Source of the DNA: a virus
Lineage: Duplodnaviria; Caudoviricetes
IMG/VR virus record: IMGVR_UViG_3300038674_000458
Location: 1 to 25,890 of that record
Direction: 5' to 3' (one strand)
Length of the DNA stretch: 25,890 nt
Shown here: positions 1-16,758 of the stretch, one piece after another
How the letters are laid out: the number at the start of each line of letters is the position of its first letter
Numbering within the stretch: position 1 is the stretch's first letter
Notes under the pieces: model-generated
The model's input: only the letters and a program-made list of their open reading frames with translations
Database searches by the model: none
What the model was told of the DNA's origin: nothing
Program-made: the position numbers and the translations under genes

Positions 1-3000
1 TGATCGAACGAAAGCACATTCTCGTCCCGCTTGATGTTCGCAAGCGCCGCAAGCCGTTCCTTTAGGCGGGCCAGAAGTTTCAGGAGTTCCCGCAGGGTCC
101 GGCTTTTCCTGTTGCCTGTTTCTTGTTCCGCGGCGATCGCCCTTTCCAGCTCGTCGATCGCTTCCTGAATCAGCTCCCTCTCGGTGTCCTGCGGGACGGG
201 GATCTTCTGCAGGTGTTCCTTGGTGACAATGACGGCATCCCAATCCCCGGTTGCGATCCGGTAGAGGAACCGCTGCCGATTCGCGGGCTCGAAGTCCTGC
301 TTCTCGGGAGCAAGGATCTTCGCCCCCGGAAACAGCGTCATGAAGTTATCCTGAATCTGCGAGAAGATGACTTTCGGAACGACGATCATCGGCTTCTGGG
401 CAATCCCCAGGCGACGGAGTTCCATCGCAAGGGTCGCCATGATGAAGGTCTTCCCGGTCCCCACCTCATGCCAAAGCAGGGTGTTCCCCTCGACGAGGGA
501 ACGCCATACGGCGTTGATCTGCGTGTCGCGGAGGGTGATCGCGGTGTTTTGCCCTGGGACCTGCACCTTCCCGGAAGATGCGTAGATCCTCGTCCCATCA
601 TGCTTCGGCTCCACAAACGAATTGAAATTGTCGTTGTAAGCCCGATGGAGGACTTCGGTTCGCTCCGGATCTTCCCATACCCATTTCTGAAAACGCGCCT
701 TCAGCTCCTTCTGCTTCTGTTCCGCCGCAAGGGTTTCTTGAAGGTTGACGACCCGCTTCTCGGTCCCTTCTTTGTAAACGGTATCGTAGACCTTGATGGG
801 CTGCTGGTTCAGGGAATAGGTGATGATCCCGATCGCATCCACGCGGCGGGTGCCCCAGGTGTTTGTCAGGAGAGCGATATTGTCGGTAGCACGGTAGCTG
901 CTTTTCTTCTCCCGCTCCACTACCCACGTTGCGGATCCCGGCAGGAAGGAAACCCGGATCGGCTCTTTCAGGAGGTCCTCGGCAAAATCTTCGATGTATT
1001 CCGGAGCAATCCAGGAAGCCCCGAAGTTGACGTAGATTTCCGAAGGCGGAACATCCGGAGGAATAACCGCTTTCAGGGCTTCTGCGTTCCGGCTGAACCG
1101 GGGATCGACGGCCGCCGCGGCCTCCGCTTCCCGGAGCTTCTTCCGGACGTTCCCGGAGAGGTAGCGGTCGCGGATCTCGACGACGCCTTCCGGGGTCTGG
1201 AACGCATCCCCCTGTATGGCTTCCCACGCCTTATTCTCGTCCGTGCCAAGCAGCTCGGCGATTCGCGCGAGGTCAACCGCCCCTGTCTCGAAAAGGGAAA
1301 TCAGCATCGCGTCCCTGGGACTCGACGCGACATCGGCTTTCCGGGTCGGCTGCACGATCCGCTTGAGAAGGATGTCGGCCTTGCGCGGCTTCTTGGTTTC
1401 CGGGTCGACGTATTCAAGCGCCCGGAGAAGGTGGTAATTCGGATCGTCCCCAAAGAACTTCTTGTTCTTCGGATCGGAGATGGGACCGCGGGCCTTCACG
1501 GTCTTGTCGTAGAGCTTGTTGAGGGCGACGCGATCGGCCTCGAATTGCTCGTCGGCGTAGTCGGGATCGAGCTGTCTCGTCACCAGCTCCCGGGCGGCCT
1601 TCCCGGTTTCGATATACATTTCGTACTCTTTGACCGTGGAGAACGAGGACGATATTTCAACGAGCTTGTCCCCGACCCGCTGGAACACCTTGTCGTCCTT
1701 GATCGTGTAGGCGTTGTCCGGGAGGTTCGGGATCCCATCGATCTGGATCTCCGTCCGGGCCCCCTTCTTCGGCGGAAGGCTGAACTTCCTCGGCTCGTAG
1801 GCGTTCGCGATGAACATCTTGGAACTGTGAAGGATCGCCTCCCCGAGGTTCTCGTTGGCCGGCTCGACGGTATACTCGTTGGCCGAATACATGCCCCCGG
1901 CAAAGGATTCGTTCCCGAGGATGTTCTGCGGGTGTTCCGCGTAATACTCGTTTGTGTTCGCGGTGTTCTCGCCCCGTCTGAATTCCTTGAGCCCCATCCA
2001 TTTCGCGCCGGCAGCCGGCTCGCCCTCCGCGCGCCGGCGCAGGAAGATGATGTCGGTTACAACCTCGGTTGAAGCGTTCGACTTGAACGCCGTCCGGGGA
2101 AGGCGCACGGAGCCGAGCAGGTCGGCTTTCCCGGCGATGTATTCCCGGATCTTGGCGTCCTGCTTGTCCATCGTGTACCGGGACGTGATGAACGCGATGA
2201 GCCCGCCCGGGCGCACCTTGTCGAGCGTCTTGGCAAAGAAGTAGTCGTGGAGGGAGAACTTGTGCCGCGTGAATTTCGGGTCGGAGAGGATCGCAATTTC
2301 CGCGAAGGGGACGTTGGAAATTGCCAGGTCGTAGAAGTTATCGGAGAGGGCCGATTCCTGGTATCCCTGAATCCGCACGTCATGGGACTGATTCAGGTTC
2401 TTGAGGATCGTCCCGGTGATGGGATCGAGCTCGATCGCCGTGAACCGCGTTTTCCCCCGGATCTCCATCGGGGTTCGCATGAGGAAGTTCCCGATGCCAG
2501 CTCCCGGTTCCAGGACGCGGCCGCCCTTGAATCCGGCCGCCCGGATCGCTGACCACATGGCGTCGACCACTTCGAGGGAAGTGTAATGCGCGTTCAGGAC
2601 GGAATCACGGGCTGCAAGGTACAGGTCCCGAGGTAGAAGGTCCTCGAGCTCCGTGGCGATTTCTCGCCAGGACACCTGATCGTCTTTGCCCTTATACCAA
2701 TCGAACGCACGGGAAAGCCCGCCCCATCCGGAGTACCGGACGAGGATCTTCTGTTCCTCGGGCGTGGCGAGGCGTCCCTCTCCTTCGAGCTTCTGCAGGA
2801 CCTTGATCGCGGCGATATTGTCGCGGGAGCGCGTGATCGCGCCGCGGCCGGTGAAATCCACGTCTTCCGGGGTGAGGATGTAATCGGTTTTGCCGGGGGT
2901 GATGCCGAATTCTTCGTTGGCTTCGGCGGCCGCGGTGGAGGCGTCCTCGAGGACCGGTTCCTCTACAGGAGCGGTTCCTCCGGTTCCTCCTTCTCCCTCA

Positions 3001-6000
3001 GAAGCAGGTCGTTTGCTACCAGCTCGACTGCCTGATGTTCCTCGTGGCCGCTTTTTCTTAACTGCCGGTACATCTCGATCGCCTGATTCTCCCGATCCTG
3101 CAGGTACGCTTCCAGCGTCCCCGCTTTCTCCATCTCCGCGAGAAGATCCGGCCGGCAGGTTTCCAGGTTCTCCTGGAACTGTTCCTTCCACGTCCGGAGC
3201 ATGGTCGGCGCCTCCTTTGTCCTTAATTATACCCCTTTTGCCGAGGATTTTTCCCTTATGCTCTGCCTCGGAAAGCCGTGCGTGCACGAGGGCTTTCTTT
3301 ACTTCTTCCGGATTGTAAAGATCCTTTTCGGTGATGTCGTAATTCGACCTGTTTGCCATCTTGAGAATTTTGGAATTGATGGCTTCGGCTATTTCTTCCG
3401 GATCGAATCCCATCTTCGCGGCGCGATTGAAAAGGCGCAGGAGGGCTTTCTCTCCCGAGGAATACTCCGATTCCTTCTTGAGGTCGACGACATTGAGGGA
3501 CAGGTGCTCGGCGATCTTGTCGAGGCGCGCCCGGGCTTCCTGGGGGTCCCGCTCGAGGAGGTTTTCCTCGCCCATTCCGGGGAGCCGTGCCTGTCCTGCT
3601 CTCGACAGGTCGATGTCCTTGGCGATCGCCGCGGGGACGGGAGGTTCAGCAGGTTCCTCGACCGGGACCGCATTCACGCCTTCCCGGGTCGGTACAATCT
3701 TCGCTTTAGGGACATCCTTTACCGTAGAAACAGGAAGCCCTTTCTTTTTCAGGGCGTTCTTGATTACTTCGATTTGTCCCCGGGGATTCCTCGGCTTCGT
3801 GACGACAACCGCTTCCGCGGCTTTCCTCTGTTCGGGCGTCAGCTCAGACACAAACCGTTTGTATTCAAGATCGGGAGAGAGGATCTCGTCTACGACAGCG
3901 GGCGGGGCTACCTCTTGCGGGCCTTTTCCTCGATTGCTTTCCGCTTCTCCTGCTGCTTCTTGAGGGCGAGTTGCTTCTGCTGCGGGTTCAGGGGTTTTCC
4001 GGATTGCAGTAGGGATTTCCGGTGCAGGTTCGGGTGCATCTACTTCTCCTTTCTGACCGCCGGCGGGACCGGCGGATTCTGCGGGGGCGGCCACCCCTTC
4101 TTTAACCCGCCGTGCTTTCTCAATTCCTTCACGAGCCCATCCAGGGAGTTCACCACGACCCGCGCGTTCGCCCCGCTCGACGGAGATCCGCTTGACTTCG
4201 TTGGCGTTGGCATCAGCTTCCTCCTCGCTTTTCCCCATTCCGAAGTTGAATTTCGCACCTTTTACAACAATATCCGTTCCGTCCTCGGCCTTGAAAACAA
4301 TCTTCTTGTCGGCAAAAATCTCCTTGGCCTTCGCAATCTGATTCAGGGTATTGGCTTCGTCGTCCGGATTGAACAGCAGAGAGAATTCATCCCCGCCCGT
4401 CCGGTAGGGATCCAAGCCGGCTTCTTTCAGAGCGTCTGCAGCATTCTTCAGGAGAATGTCGCCAACGGCGTGCCCGAGTTCCGGGGCGTCGTTCACGGCT
4501 TTCATCCCCTCGAGGTCCAGGGTCCCAAAGCGCGCGTCGGCCTTGTCGACGTCCTCCCACGCCCGCCGGTTCTTCAAGCCGGTGATCGGGTCGATGTAGA
4601 TGAGGTTGTGCACGCCTTCCGCGTCGCCGGCTTCGATGAGCCTCTGCACCTTCGCCCGGAGCTCGGTATCCGCACGCCGTTCCCGCGGGCCCTCCTGGGC
4701 GGCGCGTCGGCGGTCGTAATGCGCTTCCGCATCCCGGGCGGCCTCGTGCAGGGAGGTGTTCAGGGCGATCGGCTCCCCGGGGCCGCTCGAGAGGGTGGGA
4801 GGTGGTGCCCCCGCCGGCGAACCGGGGGAGGGGACGGTCTGCTGCGGCGTTTCCGCCGCCGCCGGCGCGGACGCGGCTGGGGGGGGCGCCGGGGGGGGCA
4901 CATGCGGGCCACCCGCGGCCGGGGCCGGCGCGGAAGGCGCGGCGGGCTGCGTGGCTGCAATCTCGGGGGGGACCGGGGGGGCCGCTGGAGGCGCGGGAGG
5001 TGGTGCCTCGGCCGGCAGGGTCCCCTTGGGATACTTCGATACGACATGCTTCCCGTCCGGGGAAGTCCCGATCTTTACGTCGAACCCTTCCCGGGACCAG
5101 ACATCCCGCAAGGAAAGGGCCGAGCTGTAGTCGCTGACCGCCCTGGAATCTATTATCTCGGGCGACATAGGCATCGGGCCGCCGGAAGGCGAGATCGGCT
5201 CTCCTGGGGGCGCCTGGGCTGCGGGCGGGCCGGTTTCGAGGGCGCCGCGAACCTCTACCGGGGGCTCCGGAGAGGGCTCCTGTCCCTTGACGGTGCGCTT
5301 GGCCTTCTTCCCGAGGATTTCCCCGAGCCAATTCGGGTGGACATCCTCGACGGAAATCTCCCCTTTCCGGATCGCGTCGGCAACCGTCGACCGGAAGGTG
5401 GGGTCGGTTTTCATCAGGTTTACGAGGTCCGGATTGGCCGTCGGATCGTCGGCCATGACTTTTACAAGGTCTTGTTTCGTGTAGTTACGGGACTTGACGG
5501 TCTTGTACAACATTTCCTCGGGAACGACTTTGCCGGCCGCCTCGACAACCTTCCCGGCGCCCTTCTTCGCGGCGTACTGCAATCCCTTCCGGCCACCGTA
5601 GAGGATCGGCGCTGCCTCGAGTCCGGTCGCCGTGAGGGCCGCGGCCAAGGGGGAGCCCGTCGCCTCGAAGATCGCCTCGCCAGCGCCCTGCCCCGCCCGG
5701 GCCGGGAGCCCGAGGACGTGATCGAATCCTTCCTTGACGGCCATTCCCTCGGGGGAGAGTACCCGCTCCCAGGGGATCGGGAAGGCGCCGGTGATCTCCT
5801 TGTACCCCTCGCCGATCTTCTCGGGGGTCCCTCGAAGTAGGTTCACCGGAAGGCCAAGGGCTTCATAAAGCCCGCCCGCGAGCGCCTGGGCGCTACCTTT
5901 TACAAGATCCACTCCCGAAGCGCCAAGCGCCGAGAGGGAATCCCCAAGCGCCTTGATCGGGGTCGTGATAGGGTTCTGCGGTGCCGAAAACGGGACTGCG

Positions 6001-6146
6001 ACCGGCTGGTTGTTGTCGTCGACCGGGGTAAGGTCGTATTCCTGGGCCGCCAAGGGTTTATTGTCCTCGCCGACCGGGGCGAGATCGTATCCGGCTGCGG
6101 AAAGCGGTTTGTTGCTATCGTCTACCGGTATTAGGTCGTATTCCAT
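1..6146 (-). CDS. Giant multidomain virion/ejection protein (partial, >2048 aa): N-terminal repeats, Pro/Ala linker, GGDEF domain, DarB-like N6-adenine DNA methyltransferase and SF2/SNF2-type helicase
   Basis: ATG at 6146 after GAGGG; no in-frame stop found by manual translation, and absence from the ORF track fits a frame open to the window edge. Motifs: IDPITGLKNRR..DLEGMKAVND..GHAVGD..YRTGGDEF (GGDEF at 4383-4397); NIAAIKVLQKLEGEGRLATPEEQKILVRYSGWGG; VLEPGAGIGNF (2484-2516); SNVPF (NVPF 2304-2315); Walker A HEVGTGKT (447-470). Last in the ejection-protein gene run. Confidence 0.92.
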   Translation of the reverse strand, partial: MEYDLIPVDDSNKPLSAAGYDLAPVGEDNKPLAAQEYDLTPVDDNNQPVAVPFSAPQNPITTPIKALGDSLSALGASGVDLVKGSAQALAGGLYEALGLPVNLLRGTPEKIGEGYKEITGAFPIPWERVLSPEGMAVKEGFDHVLGLPARAGQGAGEAIFEATGSPLAAALTATGLEAAPILYGGRKGLQYAAKKGAGKVVEAAGKVVPEEMLYKTVKSRNYTKQDLVKVMADDPTANPDLVNLMKTDPTFRSTVADAIRKGEISVEDVHPNWLGEILGKKAKRTVKGQEPSPEPPVEVRGALETGPPAAQAPPGEPISPSGGPMPMSPEIIDSRAVSDYSSALSLRDVWSREGFDVKIGTSPDGKHVVSKYPKGTLPAEAPPPAPPAAPPVPPEIAATQPAAPSAPAPAAGGPHVPPPAPPPAASAPAAAETPQQTVPSPGSPAGAPPPTLSSGPGEPIALNTSLHEAARDAEAHYDRRRAAQEGPRERRADTELRAKVQRLIEAGDAEGVHNLIYIDPITGLKNRRAWEDVDKADARFGTLDLEGMKAVNDAPELGHAVGDILLKNAADALKEAGLDPYRTGGDEFSLLFNPDDEANTLNQIAKAKEIFADKKIVFKAEDGTDIVVKGAKFNFGMGKSEEEADANANEVKRISVERGERAGRGELPGWAREGIEKARRVKEGVAAPAESAGPAGGQKGEVDAPEPAPEIPTAIRKTPEPAAEATRPQEAAGEAESNRGKGPQEVAPPAVVDEILSPDLEYKRFVSELTPEQRKAAEAVVVTKPRNPRGQIEVIKNALKKKGLPVSTVKDVPKAKIVPTREGVNAVPVEEPAEPPVPAAIAKDIDLSRAGQARLPGMGEENLLERDPQEARARLDKIAEHLSLNVVDLKKESEYSSGEKALLRLFNRAAKMGFDPEEIAEAINSKILKMANRSNYDITEKDLYNPEEVKKALVHARLSEAEHKGKILGKRGIIKDKGGADHAPDVEGTVPGEPGNLPAGSSRGDGESGDAGSVPAGSGESGDRDVPAVKKKRPRGTSGSRAGSKRPASEGEGGTGGTAPVEEPVLEDASTAAAEANEEFGITPGKTDYILTPEDVDFTGRGAITRSRDNIAAIKVLQKLEGEGRLATPEEQKILVRYSGWGGLSRAFDWYKGKDDQVSWREIATELEDLLPRDLYLAARDSVLNAHYTSLEVVDAMWSAIRAAGFKGGRVLEPGAGIGNFLMRTPMEIRGKTRFTAIELDPITGTILKNLNQSHDVRIQGYQESALSDNFYDLAISNVPFAEIAILSDPKFTRHKFSLHDYFFAKTLDKVRPGGLIAFITSRYTMDKQDAKIREYIAGKADLLGSVRLPRTAFKSNASTEVVTDIIFLRRRAEGEPAAGAKWMGLKEFRRGENTANTNEYYAEHPQNILGNESFAGGMYSANEYTVEPANENLGEAILHSSKMFIANAYEPRKFSLPPKKGARTEIQIDGIPNLPDNAYTIKDDKVFQRVGDKLVEISSSFSTVKEYEMYIETGKAARELVTRQLDPDYADEQFEADRVALNKLYDKTVKARGPISDPKNKKFFGDDPNYHLLRALEYVDPETKKPRKADILLKRIVQPTRKADVASSPRDAMLISLFETGAVDLARIAELLGTDENKAWEAIQGDAFQTPEGVVEIRDRYLSGNVRKKLREAEAAAAVDPRFSRNAEALKAVIPPDVPPSEIYVNFGASWIAPEYIEDFAEDLLKEPIRVSFLPGSATWVVEREKKSSYRATDNIALLTNTWGTRRVDAIGIITYSLNQQPIKVYDTVYKEGTEKRVVNLQETLAAEQKQKELKARFQKWVWEDPERTEVLHRAYNDNFNSFVEPKHDGTRIYASSGKVQVPGQNTAITLRDTQINAVWRSLVEGNTLLWHEVGTGKTFIMATLAMELRRLGIAQKPMIVVPKVIFSQIQDNFMTLFPGAKILAPEKQDFEPANRQRFLYRIATGDWDAVIVTKEHLQKIPVPQDTERELIQEAIDELERAIAAEQETGNRKSRTLRELLKLLARLKERLAALANIKRDENVLSFD
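2963..3202 (-). CDS. Nested 79-aa helical protein (TnpV/DUF1896-like) overprinted in the +1 frame of the giant gene
   Basis: AAGGAGG at 3211-3217, 8 nt before ATG, and TATAAT at 3226-3231. Protein-like sequence (RPDLLAEMEKAGTLEAYLQDRENQA..YRQLRKSG..AVELVANDLL), while the host frame here is a low-complexity G/S/P/R linker. Family resemblance is by eye. Confidence 0.75.
   Translation of the reverse strand: MLRTWKEQFQENLETCRPDLLAEMEKAGTLEAYLQDRENQAIEMYRQLRKSGHEEHQAVELVANDLLLREKEEPEEPLL
3211..3231 (-). promoter_or_regulatory. Internal -10 box (TATAAT) and Shine-Dalgarno (AAGGAGG) upstream of the nested 79-aa gene
   Basis: Minus strand reads GGGGTATAATTAAGGACAAAGGAGGCGCCGACCATG. An exact TATAAT is unusual in GC-rich coding DNA. 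No clear -35 hexamer. Confidence 0.6.
3908..4039 (-). CDS. Nested 43-aa basic Lys/Gln-rich protein in the +1 frame of the giant gene
   Basis: MHPNLHRKSLLQSGKPLNPQQKQLALKKQQEKRKAIEEKARKR. AAGGAG at 4046-4051, 6 nt before ATG. 33 of 42 internal codons end in G/C, while host-frame codons here are often A/T-ending. Below the ORF-track size cut-off. Confidence 0.55.
   Translation of the reverse strand: MHPNLHRKSLLQSGKPLNPQQKQLALKKQQEKRKAIEEKARKR
4040..4213 (-). CDS. Possible nested 57-aa protein in the +1 frame, directly after the GGDEF core
   Basis: GAGGAGG 6 nt before ATG 4213, although this also encodes Glu-Glu in the host frame. The segment VVVNSLDGLVKELRKHGGLKKGWPPPQNPP has GC3-biased codons. 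Its TAG abuts the next nested ATG. Confidence 0.4.
   Translation of the reverse strand: MPTPTKSSGSPSSGANARVVVNSLDGLVKELRKHGGLKKGWPPPQNPPVPPAVRKEK
5994..6146 (-). repeat. Three imperfect 51-nt (17-aa) tandem repeats at the N-terminus of the giant protein
   Basis: MEYDLIPVDDSNKPLSA / AGYDLAPVGEDNKPLAA / QEYDLTPVDDNNQPVAV. Confidence 0.85.
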
Positions 6147-6155
6147 GCGGCGCCT

Positions 6156-7382
6156 CTACTTGGACCGGGGGGTGACTTTGAATTTCTGGCCGTTGATCCT
6201 AACGTAGTAGTTTCCGTCGGGCTCGAGGTTTGCCGTCATCGGCTTGCCGTCCTTGCCCTGCAGCTGCAGCACCTTGGGCTTTCTCCCCGGCTTGGCCAGC
6301 GCAGGGGCCGCCGCGGAGGACGCGTTCCCCCCGTTGAAGATCCGGTCGAAGATCCCGGGGGACTTGGCCGGCGCGGGCGGCGCGGGGGCCGCGGGCTCCT
6401 TCCACGGTGGCGCGGCCGGGGCCGGCATTTCTCTGTCCTGTGACTGCAGCAGCGTCCCGAGAATCCCCTGCTTCTCGACGATCGGGCGCAGGTACTCCAT
6501 CATCATGATGTCGTCCTCATCGGCTTTCCCGACCGAATAGGCGTTGAGAAGCTGAACATAGTAATGCTGGATCGTCTTGGGATCCGAAGCGCTGGCAAGG
6601 TCGATCTTGTATTTGACGAGAGAGCGCGCGCCGGCTTGCCGCAACCGCTCCTGATCCATCCTGCCCTCGGCCATGACCCTGGCGATCCGCTCCCGGGCCT
6701 CGGCCGCGGCCACGGCGCCCTTGTTCTTGAGGGTCTGCACCTCCGTCTGCATCGGGCGAACACCGACGTGCTCGAGGGCTTTCCCATCTTCCTCGACGGT
6801 CGTGAGCCATCCCCGTTCGCTGACGCCGAACGAGGGGCGCACGGGCTTGTTGGGGACGGAGAACAGGACCTTGCCCGTCCTGTCGGTGACGACGCTCCCC
6901 GGGGCGTGCGCGTAAAGTTCTTTCTTTCCCGGATCGAAAAAGTCGTTCCCGAACAGCTTGTTGACCAAGCCAACCGCTTCCGGAACGTAGTCTCCGGTGT
7001 TTGCGATCGCCTGGAAGATGCCTTTCTGCAGGGTATCCTGCGCGCTCGGCTCGGCAAGGCCGGCGCCCTGCGGCGGCGCGGGCATGGCGGCCGTCGGCAT
7101 CGGAGCGGGCGCCGTCACTCCCGGGACCGGAGCGGAGGGCCCGCCGAAAACGATCTGCCCCGCGGCCGCGGTAGGAAGCGCCATCGGGGGGGTCCATCCC
7201 TGCGGTGCGTCCGGCGCGGGGGCCGGCGCGGGGGTTTCCGCTTCCGGGGAGGGCTTCGGGGAATCGAGAAGGACGGAGAGGGAGCTCATCAGCTCCTTCA
7301 TCGCCTTGCTGGTTTCCTTCTTTACCCGATCCGACTTCGCTTCATCAAGCCCTTTGAAAAAATAGGTGGTCAGGTCGCTCAC
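6156..7382 (-). CDS. Internal virion/DNA ejection protein (position of P22 gp20 / T7 gp15), 408 aa
   Basis: GTG start after AGGAGG. Pro/Ala-rich linkers and helical segments. Lies between the small ejection protein and the giant protein. Confidence 0.7.
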   Translation of the reverse strand: MSDLTTYFFKGLDEAKSDRVKKETSKAMKELMSSLSVLLDSPKPSPEAETPAPAPAPDAPQGWTPPMALPTAAAGQIVFGGPSAPVPGVTAPAPMPTAAMPAPPQGAGLAEPSAQDTLQKGIFQAIANTGDYVPEAVGLVNKLFGNDFFDPGKKELYAHAPGSVVTDRTGKVLFSVPNKPVRPSFGVSERGWLTTVEEDGKALEHVGVRPMQTEVQTLKNKGAVAAAEARERIARVMAEGRMDQERLRQAGARSLVKYKIDLASASDPKTIQHYYVQLLNAYSVGKADEDDIMMMEYLRPIVEKQGILGTLLQSQDREMPAPAAPPWKEPAAPAPPAPAKSPGIFDRIFNGGNASSAAAPALAKPGRKPKVLQLQGKDGKPMTANLEPDGNYYVRINGQKFKVTPRSK

Positions 7383-7392
7383 GTCGGGCCTC

Positions 7393-7875
7393 CTACTTGA
7401 AATATCTGTCGGCGATCTTCCCTACCCCGTAAGCCCCCGCCATGCCCATCAGGTTTCCGATGCTGTTGGTGAAGATGGCGGAAGTGCTCGGCCCGGAATT
7501 GACCGGCTGAAGCGTGGGCGTGCCCGACTTCATGCTCATGGCCGTTTTCACCATGTCGGAATACAGGTCGCCGATCGCGGAGGTCCTCGATCCCGCAAGG
7601 CGCGTAATCGGCGCCGCCACGGAATCACCTCCCAGGCCGCGCGCAGCCAGGGCGCGGGTCGTGGTGTCGAGCCCGGAGGTGTACCCCGCGTTGATCTTGC
7701 TGACTCCCGAGTTGAAGAACTGCGCCTGTTCCGCGGGCGTCATGGTGTGGGCTTCGATGTTCGCCTGGTTCGCCGCCTGTTGCGCCTCCGCGGCTTTGTT
7801 CGCTGCCTTCCTCTGGGCGCGAGACGATAGGTACGATCCGCCCAGAAGCAGACCGGCTCCTAACGCTGTGGCCAT
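7393..7875 (-). CDS. Small DNA ejection/pilot protein (P22 gp7 / T7 gp14-like), 160 aa
   Basis: AAGGAGG RBS. Gly/Ala hydrophobic N-terminus (MATALGAGLLLGGSYL) followed by AQRKAANKAAEAQQAANQ, and a Gly-rich hydrophobic C-terminus. Follows the GNAT gene. Confidence 0.75.
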   Translation of the reverse strand: MATALGAGLLLGGSYLSSRAQRKAANKAAEAQQAANQANIEAHTMTPAEQAQFFNSGVSKINAGYTSGLDTTTRALAARGLGGDSVAAPITRLAGSRTSAIGDLYSDMVKTAMSMKSGTPTLQPVNSGPSTSAIFTNSIGNLMGMAGAYGVGKIADRYFK

Positions 7876-8360
7876 TTCGTGTCCTCCTTGGAGATTCCGA
7901 CGAGGATTTCGTCGTACAAGATGCCGTTTTTAAGAAACGACTTTTTGATGAGACCTTCTTTCCTTAACCCCGCCTGGAGTGCAAACAAAATGGCCGGCCG
8001 GTTGCAGGACGGCACGAAGGATATCACCTTGACGATCGGCGTGTTTTCCCATATCCACGCAATCGTCCGCTTCGCGGCGTCCAGCCCCTCCTTACCCCGA
8101 CCTTCCGGGAGAATGCTCGTATGAACTTCGGAACAGACCGCGTTCCGCGGGAAAAGCATGAACACAGACATCTCGTTCGGCATAAGGGCGTACACCTGCG
8201 GGAGCTCGAGGATCGACCGGTACGTTTCATCCGACGGGATCGGCGTCAGGTCGTCCGTCGTCCACGGCGCGACTTCCGGATGGGACAGGACACGCATGAC
8301 GCTCCCAATATCCTCGGGGCCGCAACGGTGCACGTTAAGTCCTGGCAACAAAGTATCCAT
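7860..8360 (-). CDS. GNAT-fold acetyltransferase (DUF2824 / T7 gp13 / P22 gp14-like morphogenesis protein)
   Basis: EVHTSILPEGRGK..VPSCNRPAILFALQAGLRKEG GNAT signature. Canonical position before ejection genes. ATG 8360 with GGAG upstream; alternative GTG at 8372. Confidence 0.85.
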   Translation of the reverse strand: MDTLLPGLNVHRCGPEDIGSVMRVLSHPEVAPWTTDDLTPIPSDETYRSILELPQVYALMPNEMSVFMLFPRNAVCSEVHTSILPEGRGKEGLDAAKRTIAWIWENTPIVKVISFVPSCNRPAILFALQAGLRKEGLIKKSFLKNGILYDEILVGISKEDTKWPQR

Positions 8361-8958
8361 TCGGTTCTGCACTCCAATAATTCGCGTGGAAGTAGTTCTT
8401 GTGGAAATACCCCTGGTACGGGGTGATGATCTCCGCGAGTTTCAGGGCCGCGATGATCTCGTTCACCTTGGCCTTGATCTCATTCACCATGGCCATTGTC
8501 GTACCCGGGTCGACCGCGTCAGCCGTGAGAATCGTCTGTATGGATTCCTGCTGCTTCACCCCGAGGGCTGTCCCGTTAATCTTCTCGAGCCCTCTTGTAG
8601 ACGCCAGGACAAGGGTAAGCACCTCGGAAACGATCGTGAACACATCCCCGAGTTTCGCCCCGCCCCGCTGCGCGGCCGCCATGAGCTTCGGAGGTTGATC
8701 GTCGGCCAGGACGCCGGAAAGTCCTGTCACGTCGATCTCATCGTACTCCCCGCTCTGATGGGAACTTGCGTGCTTGGCCGGGATCAAGGGCGCGGTGTTC
8801 ATCATCGGGATCCCGCGCAAGTCCAAAGGACCAGAAAAACGTACAGCACGGCCGCCCTCCCCCTTCATCCGGGAGATTTCCTCCCAGACGAGCCGGAAGT
8901 GCTCGTTCAGCTGATCCTCGAAATTCGGGTCTTTCACATGGACATTCGGCGGCTTCAT
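8335..8958 (-). CDS. Tail needle/fibre-like structural protein, 207 aa
   Basis: ATG 8958 overlaps the upstream stop (ATGA). HASSHQSGEYDEI His motif and coiled-coil MVNEIKAKVNEIIAALKLAEII are typical of trimeric phage fibres. P22 gp26-like position. Confidence 0.55.
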   Translation of the reverse strand: MKPPNVHVKDPNFEDQLNEHFRLVWEEISRMKGEGGRAVRFSGPLDLRGIPMMNTAPLIPAKHASSHQSGEYDEIDVTGLSGVLADDQPPKLMAAAQRGGAKLGDVFTIVSEVLTLVLASTRGLEKINGTALGVKQQESIQTILTADAVDPGTTMAMVNEIKAKVNEIIAALKLAEIITPYQGYFHKNYFHANYWSAEPNGYFVART

Positions 8959-11114
8959 TCGAGAAACCAGGGCTCGTAGATTTTCACGTCTTTGTCCGTA
9001 GTCGTGTCGATCCGGAACCCCACGCGATAGAAGTTTCCTTTCGGCAGGGAGATAGATTTCCGGACGCGGCCGACGGTGGCCGGCAGCGTGAGCGGGGAAT
9101 ATTCGAGCCCATCGCAAATCGGGGTGATCGTGACGGTCGCTCCATCGGTGTCAATATCGTATTGAAGTTTCGAGAAGGTGCCGGCGTCGACGAGCCCGTT
9201 GGTCGGATATTCCTTTGTGGTGAGCTCGAAGGTCCTCTCCCCTGTCCCGCCGGCGAGCGTCATCAGGTTCCCGTTCTCGTCGCCCAGATAGACCGTCCCG
9301 GTGGTCACATCAACGAAACCGGCAGACGCAGCGCGATCCCCTTCAGTCCCGCGGGCGTTTTCGAGGCCGCCCACGAGGTCGACAACGAGCTCCCGATTGT
9401 TCACCTCCGAGGTTCCCGTAGGGTAATAGAGCCGGTAGAACCGGCCATCCCAGAGGGCGAACGCCTTGTCGAAGGCATCCCAATTCACGTTCGCCATGAG
9501 GTTCTTCCCCTGGTCGAAGAACAAGGTCGTGTGGTATTCGTTGAACACCCACAACCCGCTTTCCCGGGGGAAGATGATCCCGTAGGGGGTCGTACATGCG
9601 GATTTGTCGGTGAGAGGTCCGATCGTCGCCTGGGTCGGGTCGAACGTCCAGACATCCGGCGTGCGCCCGCGGAGCCGTTTCCATCCCTTCTTGCAGCCGA
9701 CATAAATCGTGTCGTTGTATACCTTGAGAGCCGTGTTGTCCTCGTCGTCGAACACCGTGGAATTGAAGCCGTCCCAACCGGTGTCAAGCGACTGCGGCTC
9801 CATCGGCTGCGTCCACCAGATATACCGCCCGTAATTTGGGACGCCGGCGAAGAATAAGACCTTGTTCTTCATCACGATCATCGTCCCGATTCCGCCCAGG
9901 GATCCCACCGGCTCGTCGGGCTCCCACTCCGTGTCAAGGATCTTCACGAATTGGTTGCCGTATTCGTTTAAGTATCCTTTCGCCTCGAAGGCGTAAAGCG
10001 TCCCGTCCTTACCGGTGTGTAAAGAGAGGTATCCGGTGGTTCCTACATCAATGTAAACCGACGACGTAATCCCGAAGGGCCATGCCGTGGAACGATATAC
10101 CGTCGGATTAGTGCCGAACCCGAAGTAAATTGCTCTTTTTTTATTTGATTCGACAATGTCGAAGGCGTCGACTGCGACCCCTTCACCCGCACTATAATCG
10201 GTGAACGCGGTCAGCTTCTCATATGCGATCGCTCCGGTTGCCGTGTTATATCGGAAATAAATAGGTACAGCATGCAACGCGGTTCCATCCGAGTAACTCC
10301 CGTAGGAGAACCAATATACATAATCGTCCGTCCACGCCTTGTACCTTTGGGGAGTCCCTGGAAAATAGAAGCCCGACCGGTATAGGAAACTATTGAGGCC
10401 AAGCTGGCTGTGAATTTGAGAAGCATACGGAAGCGGGCCGGGAAGCATATTCCCGCCGATTGATGCGTAATAGCAGCAATTCGATCGGTCATCCGTATCC
10501 TTGTGGGCTACCCATGCTTCGTGCGGGAACGCCTTGTCGAAAACCGGGGACAGTTCTCCACCCATGGACCCGACTCCGGTCTTGAATCCGGAAGTCACGC
10601 TACTGCCGTACATCTTCGTTACTGCTCCCTGTTGCCCCCCACCGGAAACCGCCATGAAAAACATCGTCCCGTTCCATGTAGGGATAGAGGACGTAAATCC
10701 TGCAAGCTCGAGAGACTGCCACAAGCCCGGGTTAGGCCCTTTGTCCGTAAGGAGATTGGTAAAAGTTCCATCCAATACATTGATTTCCAATATCGAAACG
10801 TCGCTTTTTATCGGAGATCCGACCAAATTTTGCGTTCCGTGAGCTATAACATAGTGCGGAGTAGAATCCGTTTCTCCATTAAGAAAGTCGAAATTCACAT
10901 CAAGAGCTGCTCCATAGAACCTATGATTGTTCAAAATCGTCCCGAGGTCGACGATCAGCGTCGGGGACGAATCTCCCCACTTGATCGTATAAAAAGCCCA
11001 TCCGCTGCCGTAGGGCGCCAAGAAATAGAAGCGGTCGAAATCCCTCACGTCTTGGCAAACAGCCCTCGGCGCCACGGTGTCCAACAGCACTCTGCCAACG
11101 ATGGTCAACGCCAT
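8955..11114 (-). CDS. Tail protein, 719 aa: low-GC N-terminal beta-rich domain fused to the C-terminal part of a tail nozzle/tubular protein B-like beta-propeller
   Basis: C-terminal ~310 aa (LFFAG..IWWTQPMEP..IGPLTDKSACTTPYGIIFPRESGLWVF..WDGRFYRLYY..FELTTKEY) resembles P22 gp10/T7 gp12-type nozzle propellers. N-terminal ~400 aa is Tyr/Gly/Ser-rich and lower in GC. Confidence 0.7.
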   Translation of the reverse strand: MALTIVGRVLLDTVAPRAVCQDVRDFDRFYFLAPYGSGWAFYTIKWGDSSPTLIVDLGTILNNHRFYGAALDVNFDFLNGETDSTPHYVIAHGTQNLVGSPIKSDVSILEINVLDGTFTNLLTDKGPNPGLWQSLELAGFTSSIPTWNGTMFFMAVSGGGQQGAVTKMYGSSVTSGFKTGVGSMGGELSPVFDKAFPHEAWVAHKDTDDRSNCCYYASIGGNMLPGPLPYASQIHSQLGLNSFLYRSGFYFPGTPQRYKAWTDDYVYWFSYGSYSDGTALHAVPIYFRYNTATGAIAYEKLTAFTDYSAGEGVAVDAFDIVESNKKRAIYFGFGTNPTVYRSTAWPFGITSSVYIDVGTTGYLSLHTGKDGTLYAFEAKGYLNEYGNQFVKILDTEWEPDEPVGSLGGIGTMIVMKNKVLFFAGVPNYGRYIWWTQPMEPQSLDTGWDGFNSTVFDDEDNTALKVYNDTIYVGCKKGWKRLRGRTPDVWTFDPTQATIGPLTDKSACTTPYGIIFPRESGLWVFNEYHTTLFFDQGKNLMANVNWDAFDKAFALWDGRFYRLYYPTGTSEVNNRELVVDLVGGLENARGTEGDRAASAGFVDVTTGTVYLGDENGNLMTLAGGTGERTFELTTKEYPTNGLVDAGTFSKLQYDIDTDGATVTITPICDGLEYSPLTLPATVGRVRKSISLPKGNFYRVGFRIDTTTDKDVKIYEPWFLE

Positions 11115-11117
11115 AGG

Positions 11118-12074
11118 TTATGCTCCGAAGATCGGGCGATACCGTTCTCGGAGGAACGGCGCGCACAGCACGAGGTCGTCGTCGCTGAGATTGTCGTCGT
11201 AGGAAACCGATCCGATGTCCACCTCTCCAACGAAAAACGGTCCCACAATCACGTCCGGGGGCAAGCTCATGTTGCTTGCGATCTTCTTGTTGGTCTGCGC
11301 CCGAATCATGTCCTGGAACAGGTTCCCGTACTTGAGAACGCCGGCCGTTTGCTCCAAGGAAACCTGCCTCGATTCGATCGCCTTCCGAGCGTCATCAAGG
11401 GATGCGGTGAGGCCAGTCTTATCTCGGTAAAGGCGCAGGTGGGTAATCTGCGAATCCGGAGCCACGGCCGGCAAAGTCCACTTGATTGCCTGAAGGGAGG
11501 TGACGATATGCCCCTCCGGGGAGAGGTCAGTTTCGTATTCCGTCCCATCGAGATACTTGGCGACATAGGTGTAGAACAAGCGATAGGTGCCCTCGGTAAC
11601 GCCCGTTCCGCCGAGGATCGCGGTGGGGGCATCTTGGGGGTTTTCGATTCCCCAGGTCGAGGGACTCATCGTCGGGAGGTAGAACTTCACCTTTGCCTCA
11701 CCATCGGTGACGTACAGGAAATTCTCGTAGGCGATCATGGCGAGGTCGTTACCATTGAACAGGGAATAGATCGTCTGCCTCGTCATGGTCGTCTTGTCGT
11801 AGTGATACAAGTTCACGCCGGCGCCGACGAACAGGTTGTCTCCGGTGCAATAGATTGAATGGACGCGATCCCCGAGGCCGGTATCAAGAACAAGGTTGGG
11901 CTTGGCAATCTTGAGCTCTCCGAAGTTCTCGAAGTCCGCGTTGAGCAAGGTCGCCGCTTCCCCGTCCTGCAGGAGCATCCGGTTCTTCTGAAAGGTATTG
12001 ATGCCCCGCTGGAAATTAATATCCGGGGGACCCTGAAGTCCTGCCCGCCGCGAGGGAGTTTTCGGAGCAGCCAT
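11118..12074 (-). CDS. Tail nozzle/tubular protein B-like protein, N-terminal part, 318 aa
   Basis: ATG 12074 in a TAATG overlap with the adaptor stop. FQRGINT..GEAATLLNADF..GELK opening and WGIENPQDAPT..GTYRLFYTYV..ETDLSP..RLYR..YDDNLSDDDL pattern typical of podoviral nozzle/stabilisation proteins. Confidence 0.7.
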   Translation of the reverse strand: MAAPKTPSRRAGLQGPPDINFQRGINTFQKNRMLLQDGEAATLLNADFENFGELKIAKPNLVLDTGLGDRVHSIYCTGDNLFVGAGVNLYHYDKTTMTRQTIYSLFNGNDLAMIAYENFLYVTDGEAKVKFYLPTMSPSTWGIENPQDAPTAILGGTGVTEGTYRLFYTYVAKYLDGTEYETDLSPEGHIVTSLQAIKWTLPAVAPDSQITHLRLYRDKTGLTASLDDARKAIESRQVSLEQTAGVLKYGNLFQDMIRAQTNKKIASNMSLPPDVIVGPFFVGEVDIGSVSYDDNLSDDDLVLCAPFLRERYRPIFGA

Positions 12075-13210
12075 TACAGCTCCCCGATGTAGTCCGGATC
12101 CATTTCTATCGCCTCCGGGAATCCGAGGTTGTCGCCGTTCATCTGTTTTCCGCTCGATAAGGTATCTGCCCACAAGGTCAGGTAAGACGTGGAGAGCGTC
12201 TTGTCGACGCGCCCGTCGTGCTCGGTCCCAATGAGCATCCCTGCCGCGAACCATTCCAGACCGTCATGAAAGATCGACGGGATTTCCGGATACTGCTGTG
12301 CGTTTGCCAACTTGGCCGCTTCCCGGACATACTCGAATTCCACATTCCCTTTCGGGGTCGTGATATTCGCCAGAACGCCGATCTCCGTGTTGAAGATGTA
12401 TTGCTCGGTATCCGACTGCCAGGAGGTCAAAACACCGTACTCCCCGGCATAGATGATGATGGAATCCCCTTCGTCGAAATCGTTGTCCGTCCCGCCGGCA
12501 AGGGTGACGGTTATCTTGTCGTTGGTCGCGTCCTGGTCGCCGACGGCCGTGATGGAGCCCTTTGATCCATCGGTGAGGTTCTCGATCACCATTCCCGCAA
12601 CCACGCCAAGGGCTGCAAGATCCCGCCCTTCCGCATCAACGTAAAACGCGGAATCACCGAACCCGGTCTTATGGTTTCCGAGAATGTTATTCCCGATGGA
12701 GAAGTTGGTTCCAGAAACGATTACCCCGGGATCCGAAGCGCCGGTATACGCTTCCCCGTCGGCGTCCGGGATCGGCATCAGGCCGAACAGGCGGGTATTC
12801 CCGAAAACGGGGCCGAGCATGATTCCGCGGGGGGAGCCGACCTGATCACGCCATGTCCCCGAAACATTGTCGAGGCGCTGCATGGAGGTCCGTTTGAGAC
12901 GGGTGTACCCGGAGCCGTCGGCCGCTCGGTATCTGGCCGGCCAGCGGGCATCGACAAAATCATGGAAGTTGGTCGGCAGCTTGTAATAGCGGGTGCCCGA
13001 CTTGATCTGGGCGATTGCCTTGGCTTTCAAGAGGCGCGTTTGATGGCAGAAGATCCGGAGCCCCTGATTAAGATATGCGCGGATCTCGTCCTGGGTGTAG
13101 CGGGTGAAGGTCTGCGCGGGCTCCCCGAGCTTGGACAGAACGCCGTCCTCGAGCTCGGTAAGGGTTTTCCCGGAGAAAAGCCCCGTGGTGGTCGTCTGCA
13201 GTTCAGGCAT
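12074..13210 (-). CDS. Head-tail adaptor / tail tubular protein A-like, 378 aa, with an inserted beta domain
   Basis: TLTELEDGVLSKLGE..EIRAYLNQGLRIF..YKLPTNF N-terminus and PEIPSIFHDGLEWFAAG C-terminus typical of P22 gp4/T7 gp11-type adaptors. Position before the nozzle genes. Confidence 0.8.
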   Translation of the reverse strand: MPELQTTTTGLFSGKTLTELEDGVLSKLGEPAQTFTRYTQDEIRAYLNQGLRIFCHQTRLLKAKAIAQIKSGTRYYKLPTNFHDFVDARWPARYRAADGSGYTRLKRTSMQRLDNVSGTWRDQVGSPRGIMLGPVFGNTRLFGLMPIPDADGEAYTGASDPGVIVSGTNFSIGNNILGNHKTGFGDSAFYVDAEGRDLAALGVVAGMVIENLTDGSKGSITAVGDQDATNDKITVTLAGGTDNDFDEGDSIIIYAGEYGVLTSWQSDTEQYIFNTEIGVLANITTPKGNVEFEYVREAAKLANAQQYPEIPSIFHDGLEWFAAGMLIGTEHDGRVDKTLSTSYLTLWADTLSSGKQMNGDNLGFPEAIEMDPDYIGEL

Positions 13211-13502
13211 TACGAGGTCCCTTTCTCCCGCGTCTTTTCACGAAGGTTTCCGCGATCTCGCTGCTGGTGTTGGCTTCGCCGAATTCGCCCAGGAATGGAT
13301 CCCCGGGGAGTTCGGCGCCCGCGAGGCCCTCCGTATCGAGGGCCTTATCCCGGGCTTCCTCCGGAACGACTTGGGGAATCTGCCCGGGGAGCAGTTCCTC
13401 CGTCACCGGATCGAATTTCCACGGTCCTTGGGTAATCCACCGCTTCTCACCGTCGACGCCGATCCCGGAAGGGCGATGAGGGTCGAATTTTGGCGTCGCC
13501 AT
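13203..13502 (-). CDS. Hypothetical phage protein, 99 aa
   Basis: AAGGAGG RBS before ATG 13502 (MATPKFDPHRP..). Basic C-terminal tail KRRGRK. The longer ORF-track start is not supported. Confidence 0.7.
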   Translation of the reverse strand: MATPKFDPHRPSGIGVDGEKRWITQGPWKFDPVTEELLPGQIPQVVPEEARDKALDTEGLAGAELPGDPFLGEFGEANTSSEIAETFVKRRGRKGPRNA

Positions 13503-15028
13503 TTGCGATATACCTCCTTCATTTTCGGCAGGATGTCGGACGGATCGAATTCCGAGGCACATTGGCACACCCGGAACCGCTCGTCTTTCGGGCAGTCGTT
13601 TTCGAGGAACACCATGCGATGGCAGGGGGAACATGCGGCCCGGGACTGCACCGAGTAGTCGTTCTCCCAATACTTGCAAAGGTTCGCCCAGGAAGAATGG
13701 GTGAGCATACAGATTTTCGGCGTCGGGAAGCAGCCGGCGATGTTCAGAACACCGGTTTCGGGACCTACCACAAGATCCGCATATTTGACGGCCGCCGCCA
13801 CGTTCCGGATCGTCCATCGGCCGGCGCGGTGCAGGAAGTTCGGGTCGTCGTCACAGCAGAGTTCGAGCAGCTTCTCGGGGGCTCCCCCGACGGTGATGAA
13901 CAGGACTTCCGGATGTTCCCTCCGGAACGCCTCCATGCAGAGGTTGAAAAAGGGGAACCGCTTGTGGGGACCGGATCCCCCCAGGGCCCATATCACAATG
14001 AACCGACCGGCGGTTGCGGCCCGGAAGATCCGGGCATTGAGCTCTTCCTCGTTTGAGAGGAAAATTTCCCCATTCTCCCCTCTCGCGTCGATGCCGGCGG
14101 CCTTGAGGGCGTAGTCGTAGTAGTTGATCAGCCCGTACTTTAACCGCCGCTCCTTGTCAGGGAGGTCGTAGTCGGGGGATTTCCGCTTGATCTGCAGGAG
14201 GGCCTCCTCACAAGTTCCCGAGAGGTTTATGAACCGGTCGAAGTTCTTGGAGAGCCGTTCCCAATATTCCTCGAGCTCCGCGTTGGCGACTTCGTTGGAG
14301 CCCTGATAGATGATCCGATCGACGTTCGGATTGTGGCGCAGGATCTCCAGGCCGTTCTCGGAGGTGTTGACGGTGACGTGATACCCCTCTTGTTTCAGGT
14401 GTCGGATGACGGGCGTGGCGATGATGATGTCGCCGATCCCGCCGTACCGGACGACGCACGCGGTTTTCTCGTTCTTCATCGGGGCCCGGGAAACCAGCGG
14501 GGGCACGCCGGCGAAGTCTGCAATCTTCTGCACAACCAAGTCGAAGGAATACTCGTCGCCCTCGGAGTGAACCTCCATATGCAGCGTCTTGTAGGAAGCG
14601 AATTCGTTCAGCATCCGGAAGATGTCGGCCGGCTCGAAATCGTTCTTGTGGGCGGGGTTTGCCCCGGGCTGTCCCATCCTGGGGTAGTGGTCCTTGTGGG
14701 GCAGGTACAGCACGAGGTTCCCGCCCGGGCGGATTACCCTCCACCATTCCTGAAGCGCCAGCACGGGATTCGAGAGATCCTCGAGACAATGGGACGAGAA
14801 GACGTAGTCGAAGGTGCCGTCGGCAAATAGGGTCAAGCCGTTCTCCAGGTCGATCGCAAGGTCGGCCTGGGAGCCGTTCGCCTTGCCGATGTCGAGCCCG
14901 ATCGCCGAGGTCTTGATTTTCTCCGCGCCGCATCCGATATCGAGCCCCTGCCCTTCGCAGTACCCGATGAGCCGCGGCCGGCACTTCTTCACCTCCGGGA
15001 CGTAGGGGGCTTTCGGGTCCCAGGTCAT
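13403..15028 (-). CDS. Class I SAM methyltransferase fused to a GT9 (heptosyltransferase-like) glycosyltransferase, 541 aa
   Basis: ATG 15028 in an ATGA overlap. GLDIGCGAEK, FDYVFSSHCLED and WWRVIRPGG (methyltransferase); VVRYGGIGDIIIATPVI, HKRFP, ADLVVGPETGVLNIAG (GT9); Cys motif CSPCHR..C..C.C. Confidence 0.9.
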   Translation of the reverse strand: MTWDPKAPYVPEVKKCRPRLIGYCEGQGLDIGCGAEKIKTSAIGLDIGKANGSQADLAIDLENGLTLFADGTFDYVFSSHCLEDLSNPVLALQEWWRVIRPGGNLVLYLPHKDHYPRMGQPGANPAHKNDFEPADIFRMLNEFASYKTLHMEVHSEGDEYSFDLVVQKIADFAGVPPLVSRAPMKNEKTACVVRYGGIGDIIIATPVIRHLKQEGYHVTVNTSENGLEILRHNPNVDRIIYQGSNEVANAELEEYWERLSKNFDRFINLSGTCEEALLQIKRKSPDYDLPDKERRLKYGLINYYDYALKAAGIDARGENGEIFLSNEEELNARIFRAATAGRFIVIWALGGSGPHKRFPFFNLCMEAFRREHPEVLFITVGGAPEKLLELCCDDDPNFLHRAGRWTIRNVAAAVKYADLVVGPETGVLNIAGCFPTPKICMLTHSSWANLCKYWENDYSVQSRAACSPCHRMVFLENDCPKDERFRVCQCASEFDPSDILPKMKEVYRKWRRQNSTLIALPGSASTVRSGGLPKDRGNSIR

Positions 15029-15723
15029 TCCTTCACCCCCACCATCGTCACCAGGTCGAAGGGGGATTCCGGGTTCCGGATCTCGCCTTCCTTGAAGTCC
15101 CACCATTTGACGCAAAAGCCAAGCTTCTCGAACAAGGCGTAAAGAGCCGGCACGGTGTAATAGTGCAGGTGCTCCCCGGGCTTGTAATGCCTCCATTCCC
15201 GGAATCTGGATGGGTGGACGTTCCCCGCGTTCGGCGTGAGGATGACCAGAACATTCGGGTCGATCCGCTCGATGACGCTGCGCGGGTGCTGGATATGCTC
15301 GATCACGTCGAACATGGTGAGGACCTGCGTGTCGTGGATCAGGTCCCCGATGACGGTGCTCCCTTCCGGGAGGTAGTAGGGAGAAAAAGGATTGATGTCC
15401 ACGCCGGCCAGATTCAACCCCGGGGGGGCGTTCTCGTACTGCAGGAACGCCCCGGCCCCGGCCCCGAAGTCGAGGACGTTGGTGTGCCCGTTCATGAAGC
15501 GGCGCACCGTCGCCCAACGATGGGCGGAAATGATCTTGCTCTTGTGGGTTTTCGCCAGCTCAGCATAGTGCTCGAAGTAATCCTTTCCGTACAGGTCCTC
15601 CCTGCACGGGAAATCCAGCGTGATCCGCCCACACATCGGGCACCGCCAGAGGTGCGGTTCTTGCTTCACCATTCCGATCCTGCAGGTATCGCAGATCCCG
15701 GTGAACCAGCTCGATTCGTTCAA
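15025..15723 (-). CDS. Class I SAM-dependent methyltransferase with N-terminal Zn-ribbon, 232 aa
   Basis: TTG start after GAGGGGGAG. CDTC..CPMC, VLDFGAGAGAFL, TMFDVIEHI, ILTPN and EHLHYYT, the pattern of glycan-associated methyltransferases. Confidence 0.88.
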   Translation of the reverse strand: MNESSWFTGICDTCRIGMVKQEPHLWRCPMCGRITLDFPCREDLYGKDYFEHYAELAKTHKSKIISAHRWATVRRFMNGHTNVLDFGAGAGAFLQYENAPPGLNLAGVDINPFSPYYLPEGSTVIGDLIHDTQVLTMFDVIEHIQHPRSVIERIDPNVLVILTPNAGNVHPSRFREWRHYKPGEHLHYYTVPALYALFEKLGFCVKWWDFKEGEIRNPESPFDLVTMVGVKE

Positions 15724-16711
15724 AGATCTCCCCCTCGTTGAAATAGTCGTTGCACGGCGTCCGTCCGTCCCCGCGAACGGACAGGTAGCAATCCTCGGGC
15801 TTGTAGATCGCCCTCAAGCAGGGCGAACAAGAGATAGAGGACTGTAAGGAATGGTCGTAGATATGCCCGCTGACTGCCTGTGCTACTGAAGAAGTCGTGC
15901 AGAGCATGGTTTTCGGCGTTCCCCACATCCCCGCGCCGACCAGGAGCCCCGTTTCCGGGCCGATGACGTAATCGGCGTACCGTGCCAGGAGAAGGGCCCG
16001 CCGGAAGGCCAAGCCGGCACGCGGATCGGGAATTTTGATCCGGTCGCTTCCGATCGCGTGGAATTCCGGCCGGCGCGCTGCCAGCGTTTCGGGATCGGAA
16101 ACAAGGAGGATGTAGGCGTCCTTGAATTCTTCGACGATCTTCCGGGCGATCGACGCTGCCTGGGGGAACCGCTTCTGCGCGTTGGAGCCGGCAAGCGCCA
16201 TCAGGACCAGGAAGCCGACATCCCCGCGGACTTTCTTGGCCCACTCGATTTCCCACTCGTAGAAGGCGGCGGTCCCGCACTCCCCCGGAAGCCGCTCACG
16301 GGAGAGTCCTGCGGCCGCCAGAGACAGCGAATAGAACGATTCGCCAGGGAGGGAGTTCCTCCGCTGTTCGATCGACCACTCGAAGTTGTCATCCCCACGC
16401 GCGGGGATCAGCGTCGTTTCGATCGTGTTGGAGAGGTTGACGACAAGATCCGGCTGGAAACCTTCCACGTCCTCATCCATCACCTTCTGGATCTTCGCGG
16501 AAACATCTTCCGGAGATTCCGAGAAGAACGGGGGCTCGTAGAACGTCATCCCCTCGAATCGCGTGTCGGCATCGAAGATTTCCTTCCCCTTGAAGCCCGT
16601 GTGCAGATACAGGACGTTCCCCTGCTCCCGCAGCCGGTCGATTACCGGCAAGGTGTAGAGCAGGTCGCCGAACGCCCCGTACCGCCAGAGCATGATCCGC
16701 TTTCCCTTCAT
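15560..16711 (-). CDS. GT9 family glycosyltransferase (heptosyltransferase-like)
   Basis: ATG 16711 after a G-rich RBS. WRYGAFGDLLYTLPVI, QKRFP, ADYVIGPETGLLVGAG..TPKTML and CSPCLR..C..C. Paralogous to the GT9 half of 13403-15028. Confidence 0.9.
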   Translation of the reverse strand: MKGKRIMLWRYGAFGDLLYTLPVIDRLREQGNVLYLHTGFKGKEIFDADTRFEGMTFYEPPFFSESPEDVSAKIQKVMDEDVEGFQPDLVVNLSNTIETTLIPARGDDNFEWSIEQRRNSLPGESFYSLSLAAAGLSRERLPGECGTAAFYEWEIEWAKKVRGDVGFLVLMALAGSNAQKRFPQAASIARKIVEEFKDAYILLVSDPETLAARRPEFHAIGSDRIKIPDPRAGLAFRRALLLARYADYVIGPETGLLVGAGMWGTPKTMLCTTSSVAQAVSGHIYDHSLQSSISCSPCLRAIYKPEDCYLSVRGDGRTPCNDYFNEGEIFERIELVHRDLRYLQDRNGEARTAPLAVPDVWADHAGFPVQGGPVRKGLLRALC

Positions 16712-16732
16712 CTTTCCCCCCGGAAAGGTTGC

Positions 16733-16758
16733 GGGGGGCACCCGCGAAGGTGCCCCCC
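16733..16758 (-). terminator. Perfect 10-bp GC hairpin after the capsid/decoration genes (weak terminator or mRNA stabiliser)
   Basis: GGGGGGCACC-TTCGCG-GGTGCCCCCC on the minus strand, just after the stop at 16766. Followed only by a poor U-tract (GCAACCTTTCC). Confidence 0.6.

Follow-up and report, generated by a model that had tools for sequence, protein, structure and literature searches.

Long genes embedded on the same strand within another gene are thought to be rare in prokaryotes, and gene callers drop them. The closest described case is that of the Rz/Rz1 embedded spanin genes, which occur in Bcep22-like phages (PMC9144972, PMC10269572, available texts): a complete small gene lies inside another one on the same strand and in a shifted frame, and the Rz/Rz1 products form a complex. 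A second relevant class is that of the polyvalent proteins with a DarB-type methyltransferase-helicase (Iyer et al. 2017, PMC5512222), such as P1 DarB or Bcep22 gp75. We analyzed a 25,890-nucleotide (nt) stretch of DNA, here called the window, from a virus of the Caudoviricetes (IMG/VR record IMGVR_UViG_3300038674_000458, a phage record of 25.9 kb that is 45% complete), which carries a giant gene for such a DarB-like polyvalent protein, combining, like the proteins of this class, GGDEF, adenine methyltransferase and SF2 helicase modules in a virion gene module. Three short open reading frames (ORFs), named A, B and C, lie inside this gene and appear to be genes in their own right. Embedded genes are a known kind; the new element at this locus is that one gene houses two families whose expression signals differ. 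Unlike Rz/Rz1, several unrelated small genes are found here in one multi-enzyme gene of 2000-5000 residues, each tied to a domain and one with a promoter signal; they lack lipoprotein or membrane features and a lysis role, and a search of A, B and C for spanin features (lipoprotein signal, transmembrane segment, spanin family) gave none, their sequences being charged and soluble. The accessible part of the main text of PMC5512222 makes no mention of TnpV, overlap or DUF1896, and a literature search, mostly at title and abstract level and without supplements, did not turn up any account of genes nested in DarB-like giants.

The giant gene (3..6146, minus strand) is open for 2048 amino acids (aa) without a stop up to the contig end, and all three ORFs are on the minus strand with a frame offset of +1 relative to it (6146->3). 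ORF A (4040..4213, 57 aa, with a conserved core at 4156-4040) belongs to a GGDEF-linked family and has a Shine-Dalgarno (SD) sequence, AGGAGG (4220..4225), 6 nt before its ATG. ORF B (3908..4039, 43 aa, basic) starts with an ATG directly behind the stop of A, and its SD, AAGGAG (4046..4051), is located inside the end of A, also 6 nt before the ATG. ORF C (2963..3202, 79 aa) encodes a TnpV/DUF1896-like four-helix protein and has an AAGGAGG (3211..3217) 8 nt before its ATG. Each thus lies whole within a same-strand coding sequence, out of frame with it and with its own ribosome site, as embedded genes do. Third-position GC content is 0.81, 0.80 and 0.76 in the nested frames of A, B and C versus 0.53, 0.31 and 0.30 in the host frame. 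Using a codon model trained on 19 other, frame-checked genes of the window, the nested-minus-host score was +0.03 for A, +0.45 for B and +0.73 for C for a null mean of -0.76, and these values were reached by 0 of 4387, 0 of 4653 and 0 of 3969 equal-length windows of the training genes, a null that is in-sample, which favors the result, and made of overlapping windows. A preliminary description of this DNA had pointed to the shared +1 frame, to SD sequences 6-8 nt upstream of every ORF and to a shift of the GC third-position bias to the nested frame, all of which hold. It had also taken the host frame over the ORFs to be mostly low-complexity linker, which does not apply to the first 19 codons of A: these lie over the last, conserved helix of the GGDEF domain and are host-like in codon use (-0.52, ordinary for the null), while the flip is found in the last 38 codons (+0.30).

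ORF C, which lies upstream of the DNA adenine methyltransferase domain of the giant (2022..2834, minus strand, aa 1105-1375; PHROG 11801, E 4e-121), is almost certainly a real gene. A C-type gene is nested identically in 62 of 69 viral loci and in at least 58 of 80 bacterial loci. An SD of at least 5 nt is present at 51 of 61 bacterial C-type matches, and the predicted structure of ORF C is a complete, stand-alone four-helix fold. Annotation does drop such genes, as had been anticipated: Bcep22 carries a nested C-type gene that is omitted from its record, and among 41 matched Burkholderia and Ralstonia phage records, the 40 listed annotate the matching stretch as one giant or hypothetical gene. 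The ORFs could in principle be chance frames created by the amino-acid bias of linkers, a reading that draws on the GGAGG-like words that Glu/Gly-rich linkers create and on the single relative of B. Family-level protein conservation, the predicted fold, the ratio of nonsynonymous to synonymous differences (pN/pS) and the promoter signal nevertheless refute it for C and largely for A, and we find it scarcely credible.

By its sequence, ORF C is a distant relative of TnpV: it scores 18.4 bits (E 0.002) against the TnpV family of Pfam (PF14198), below the 27-bit gathering cut-off, and 19 of the 33 members of its family match PF14198 at E<=0.1 (best 4e-8). The TnpV proteins of Tn4451/Tn4453 resemble this family in sequence, and classical TnpV is also found nested in +1 in giants of Bacillota, but ORF C lacks their N-terminal extension, and accounts of TnpV present it as a gene of transposons, for which a role in excision has been postulated, rather than as a nested gene. 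No serine recombinase or Tn4451-type transposon was found in the window, a record that is 45% complete and in which C sits in a virion gene. The match to DUF1896 (PF08989) is 15 bits over 39 residues, for a cut-off of 25 bits and a family of 142 positions, and the genome search gave no DUF1896 match; compared to PG0816 of that family (PDB 2APL), C is about half as long, with 12% identity. Both families gain a testable context here. Two other giants deserve mention. In Bacteroides phage BKO1-TP3 (L211), the giant contains +1 ORFs at 6606-6917 and 4107-4271 that have weak SD sequences and are unannotated; one is located just before the methyltransferase, and the TnpV-like profile matches neither. 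In phage PBC5 (L210), the giant is split over two frames (937-7527 and 6954-16733) and the upstream one enters a TnpV-like stretch, which may be due either to a sequencing error or to a genuine frameshift.

ORF A overlaps the end of the GGDEF domain of the giant (4131..4598, minus strand, aa 517-672; Pfam PF00990 match at aa 517-622, E 3e-7, over the cut-off). The GGDEF signature is intact (aa 584-588), and the domain end corresponds, by alignment, to a conserved GERAxRGExP motif. Since this host motif is also conserved in other giants, the host frame constrains part of the DNA of A. A DNA pattern for the motif found 47 loci, 14 of them with a GGDEF core, of which 10 are distinct; 9 of these 10 have a +1 ORF that ends 29-50 codons past the motif start, with a common pattern of a helix followed by LPxGxKI..V.LP. 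Over the 18 codons past the searched motif (n=12 sequences), the mean pair similarity over shuffles reached a z of 20.4 in the +1 frame, for 4.2 in the host frame and 3.4 in the +2 frame. Moreover, host third positions are identical between the window and L001, its nearest relative, at 17 of 18 codons of A's core versus 24 of 70 in the GGDEF core (p 5e-6). Start codons vary within the family and the AGGAGG of the window is absent from the same place in L001; a start with an SD of at least 4 nt is available in 8 of 9 loci. We conclude that A is very probably a real gene.

ORF B likely is one too, and is the least certain of the three. L001 keeps its SD, ATG, basic C-terminus and stop at 5403-5567, directly behind its own A, and between the window and L001 the pN/pS of B is 0.67 in the nested frame and 1.15 in the host frame. 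The conservation check that the preliminary description had called for therefore supports C and A across divergent elements, while the start of A turns out to be variable and B is retained in one relative. The nested frames are also under stronger selection than the linker that the host frame encodes there.

ORF C also shows an expression signal of its own. A TATAAT (-10 box; 3226..3231, minus strand) is located 23 nt before its ATG, and the distance is the same in L001, L012, L015 and L036. Using approximate promoter matrices, a -10 box of at least 6 bits was found 12-60 nt upstream of C in 22 of 50 loci (controls about 1, shuffles 2.9) and, with near-duplicates removed, in 14 of 37 (control 0.7, maximum 4). 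Upstream of bacterial C-type genes, TTGCAA-17-(T/C)A(T/C)AAT is recurrent. The signal in Bacillota could partly be a host protein motif, but the register of the -10 box relative to the host frame differs between Bcep22-like phages and the window. Promoter signals of this kind were found for none of the A-type, ParB-linked or Bcep-type nested genes. It is quite likely that C has its own sigma70-type promoter, and editing or recoding DarB-like genes may then unknowingly hit a second gene and its promoter.

Nesting of this sort recurs by rule in a widespread protein class, cultured phages included. Among 70 host genes, all 88 SD-bearing nested candidates with a codon gain are in the +1 frame, 47 of them TnpV-like and 41 not. 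Twelve nested candidates cluster behind the region that follows a DdrB-like ParB domain, two clusters (of 8 and 6 nested genes) belong mostly to Bcep22- and Ralstonia-type giants, and single nested +1 genes follow zeta-toxin (L038, L051) and kinase (L066) domains. Other sequences were noticed as well. An ORF of 184 aa in L020 (5505-6059), judged by eye to be HNH-endonuclease-like, is nested in +1 with an SD and an open giant frame, and a further conserved +1 ORF is located far into the C-terminal part of the giants of L021 (13914-14099) and L033 (14247-14432). QL(S/D)LF-like motifs, which we take to resemble sliding-clamp binding motifs, are found shortly before the nested gene or the methyltransferase, in the N-termini of L120, L121, L122, L125, L127, L136 and L139 and in ParB-linked hosts.

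We favor the view that the giant gene is dual-coding and that the small +1 frames are likely translated into separate proteins, cognate and probably restraining partners of the enzyme modules that they accompany, which we think has about an even chance of being correct. That they partner the adjacent enzyme is an evenly balanced proposition, and that they inhibit it is a tentative suggestion; the preliminary description had named inhibitors, chaperones or immunity factors as possible roles. Internal initiation on the late mRNA of the giant gene would yield A, and B coupled to it; A would thus appear together with the GGDEF enzyme and could hold it in check in the producing cell up to packaging and delivery of the giant. 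An inhibitory site of the RxxD type is absent from the GGDEF domain of the window; with its signature intact, an outside brake would be useful. C would be a separate transcription unit with a host-type sigma70 promoter within the giant gene, so that it would also be made while the giant is untranscribed (on newly entered DNA, or in a prophage or plasmid state); its partner would be the methyltransferase-helicase. More broadly, giant injected effectors of phages and conjugative elements might be built of two-gene cassettes, each enzyme module having its own +1 inhibitor or chaperone gene in the adjoining linker, one with an internal promoter, and being shuffled with self-protection attached; this is possible, if somewhat doubtful. 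Such cassettes would suit the one-to-one domain linkage of A and of the ParB-linked family. If true, they would amount to a widespread and hidden set of proteins, each inhibiting one kind of domain: diguanylate cyclases, ParB-like nucleases, zeta toxins, kinases and DarB-type methylase-helicases. Embedded genes of this sort would account for a cell's ability to produce a protein full of conflict enzymes and for the odd linker sequences of polyvalent proteins. In type II toxin-antitoxin and polymorphic toxin-immunity pairs, a small gene is likewise tightly linked to an enzyme domain, with domain-specific families, and A is consistently linked to one enzyme type (GGDEF, 9 of 10 loci); here, however, the enzyme forms part of a giant protein whose gene contains the small one, and the neutralization is putative. 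The small ORFs matched no antitoxin families.

Several observations weigh against a dual-coding gene with cognate partners. The distance from C to the methyltransferase is about 90 codons or fewer in most phages and up to about 1400 in Bacillota elements, so that adjacency is no proof of partnership; methyltransferase-helicases exist without C (the P1 darB region, L122, L125, L127, L129 and others), as do TnpV copies apart from methyltransferase-helicases (L069, L208). Strain differences in C are synonymous in 10 of 20 cases in the nested frame versus 5 of 20 in the host frame, which goes in the right direction and is not significant (p 0.19). The window's A diverges from its family consensus, L001 has an ATT at the place of its ATG, L118 keeps the GGDEF motif with no A-type +1 ORF, and no B-like ORF was seen among the other GGDEF loci displayed, leaving L001 as the sole supporting relative. 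Regarding the promoter, the window genome has no -35 match to the -10 box of C, and the enrichment at bacterial loci (-10 boxes of at least 8 bits within 50 nt in 9 of 61, control 3.3%, and within 110 nt in 22 of 61, control 8.5%) arose only once starts were chosen by SD and the search window was widened, a first crude test having given no enrichment (3 of 57 versus 7%). In ordinary genes, the frame needed by the host is open in 37% of 80-codon windows for +1 nesting and in 17% for +2, and the genetic code itself thus accounts for part of the +1 rule. By the first of these figures, and by synonymous resampling (0.08), it is not rare for the host frame to stay open over one gene. Finally, loci and sequence pairs are related, and the counts are not independent.

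That openness, together with the RefSeq annotation of plasmids L120, L121 and L128, in which the small gene is called and the helicase gene is cut short, would be in keeping with an operon of separate genes whose long host frame is open by chance or as a by-product. We judge this very improbable: all 62 viral and 58 of 62 bacterial C-type matches have an open host frame, an SD-bearing host-frame start near the nested stop was found in 0 of 50 loci, and the indels in C between the window and L001 are multiples of three. Furthermore, a JC1 homologue (DarB-like protein) was detected in virions by mass spectrometry (PMC9144972, accessible part), which, together with the gene position, suggests that the giant protein of the window is packaged in the virion. 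The prevalence of the +1 frame raises another alternative, namely that a +1 frameshift ends the giant after a module and yields shorter isoforms with the A, B or C peptide as alternative tails. The variable start of A, the host-like codon use of its 5' third and the PBC5 giant frame running into TnpV-like sequence (possibly a sequencing error) would fit such isoforms, but the SD and ATG found at C in most loci, its promoter signal, its complete predicted fold and the SD-bearing starts of A-type loci make them improbable.

The variable distance between C and the enzyme, the free-standing relatives and C's own promoter signal speak for the main rival, in which the small genes are real and encode independent small regulators, not domain partners, lodged in linkers that tolerate dual coding where genome length is limited; C could, for example, be a DNA-binding or excision-type accessory factor. 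TnpV has been postulated to help Tn4451 excision (PMC3158075, accessible part), and the HNH-like gene of L020 is nested likewise, so that unrelated genes can lodge in linkers. Independent regulators are nonetheless rather unlikely in our opinion, as A is found behind one GGDEF subtype despite unrelated flanks, a different family is found behind a ParB-like region at 12 loci, and the four-helix model of C is unlike the winged-helix Xis.

Regarding origins, the nested frames have ordinary codon use, a fold and free-standing relatives (L069, L208, Streptococcus phages), and the small genes are probably the older reading, with the linker as the overprint. The preliminary description had proposed that the giant grew by read-through capture of enzyme-partner pairs, and this finds no support: in 10 plasmid and 80 genome loci, no free small gene was found directly before a free methyltransferase-helicase. 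Short methyltransferase-helicase genes, with 130-185 residues before the enzyme, already read across the small gene in L121, L136 and L139, and probably, by position only, in L120, so that for C the nesting predates the giant. Read-through capture may have taken place, but would then be ancient. In the Pseudomonas plasmid L120 (949-3004), a zeta-toxin family gene is located directly before the leader-plus-nested-gene start of the methyltransferase-helicase, an arrangement that resembles an unfused form of the giants of L038 and L051.

The giant gene ends a podovirus-type morphogenesis module; upstream of it, on the minus strand, are the genes for the portal, adaptor, major head and internal virion proteins. 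PHROG 10089 (DarB-like) matches its product with an E of 6e-284, and the methyltransferase is followed by the start of an SF2/SNF2 helicase region (189..539, minus strand, aa 1870-1986; Pfam ResIII, E 7e-8) that is cut by the contig end, which is the multi-domain order of DarB-like polyvalent proteins. Contigs that overlap the region in runs X2 and X3 match it and show no indels and, as far as these contigs tell, the sequence is no assembly artefact. A variant co-occurring in run X2 has diverged or replaced host segments at 3206-3375 and 3707-3900 and retains ORF C as well as the region of A and B. In inter-module linkers of the giants of the window (aa 712 and 838) and of L001 (aa 685, 729, 828 and 922), a short motif of the host frame, PAAIAK, is repeated, possibly as a mark of processing or recombination. 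Lastly, a methyltransferase and glycosyltransferase gene cluster is located between the head and adaptor genes of the window (13403-16741), and the ORF at 13403-15517 resembles two overlapping genes.

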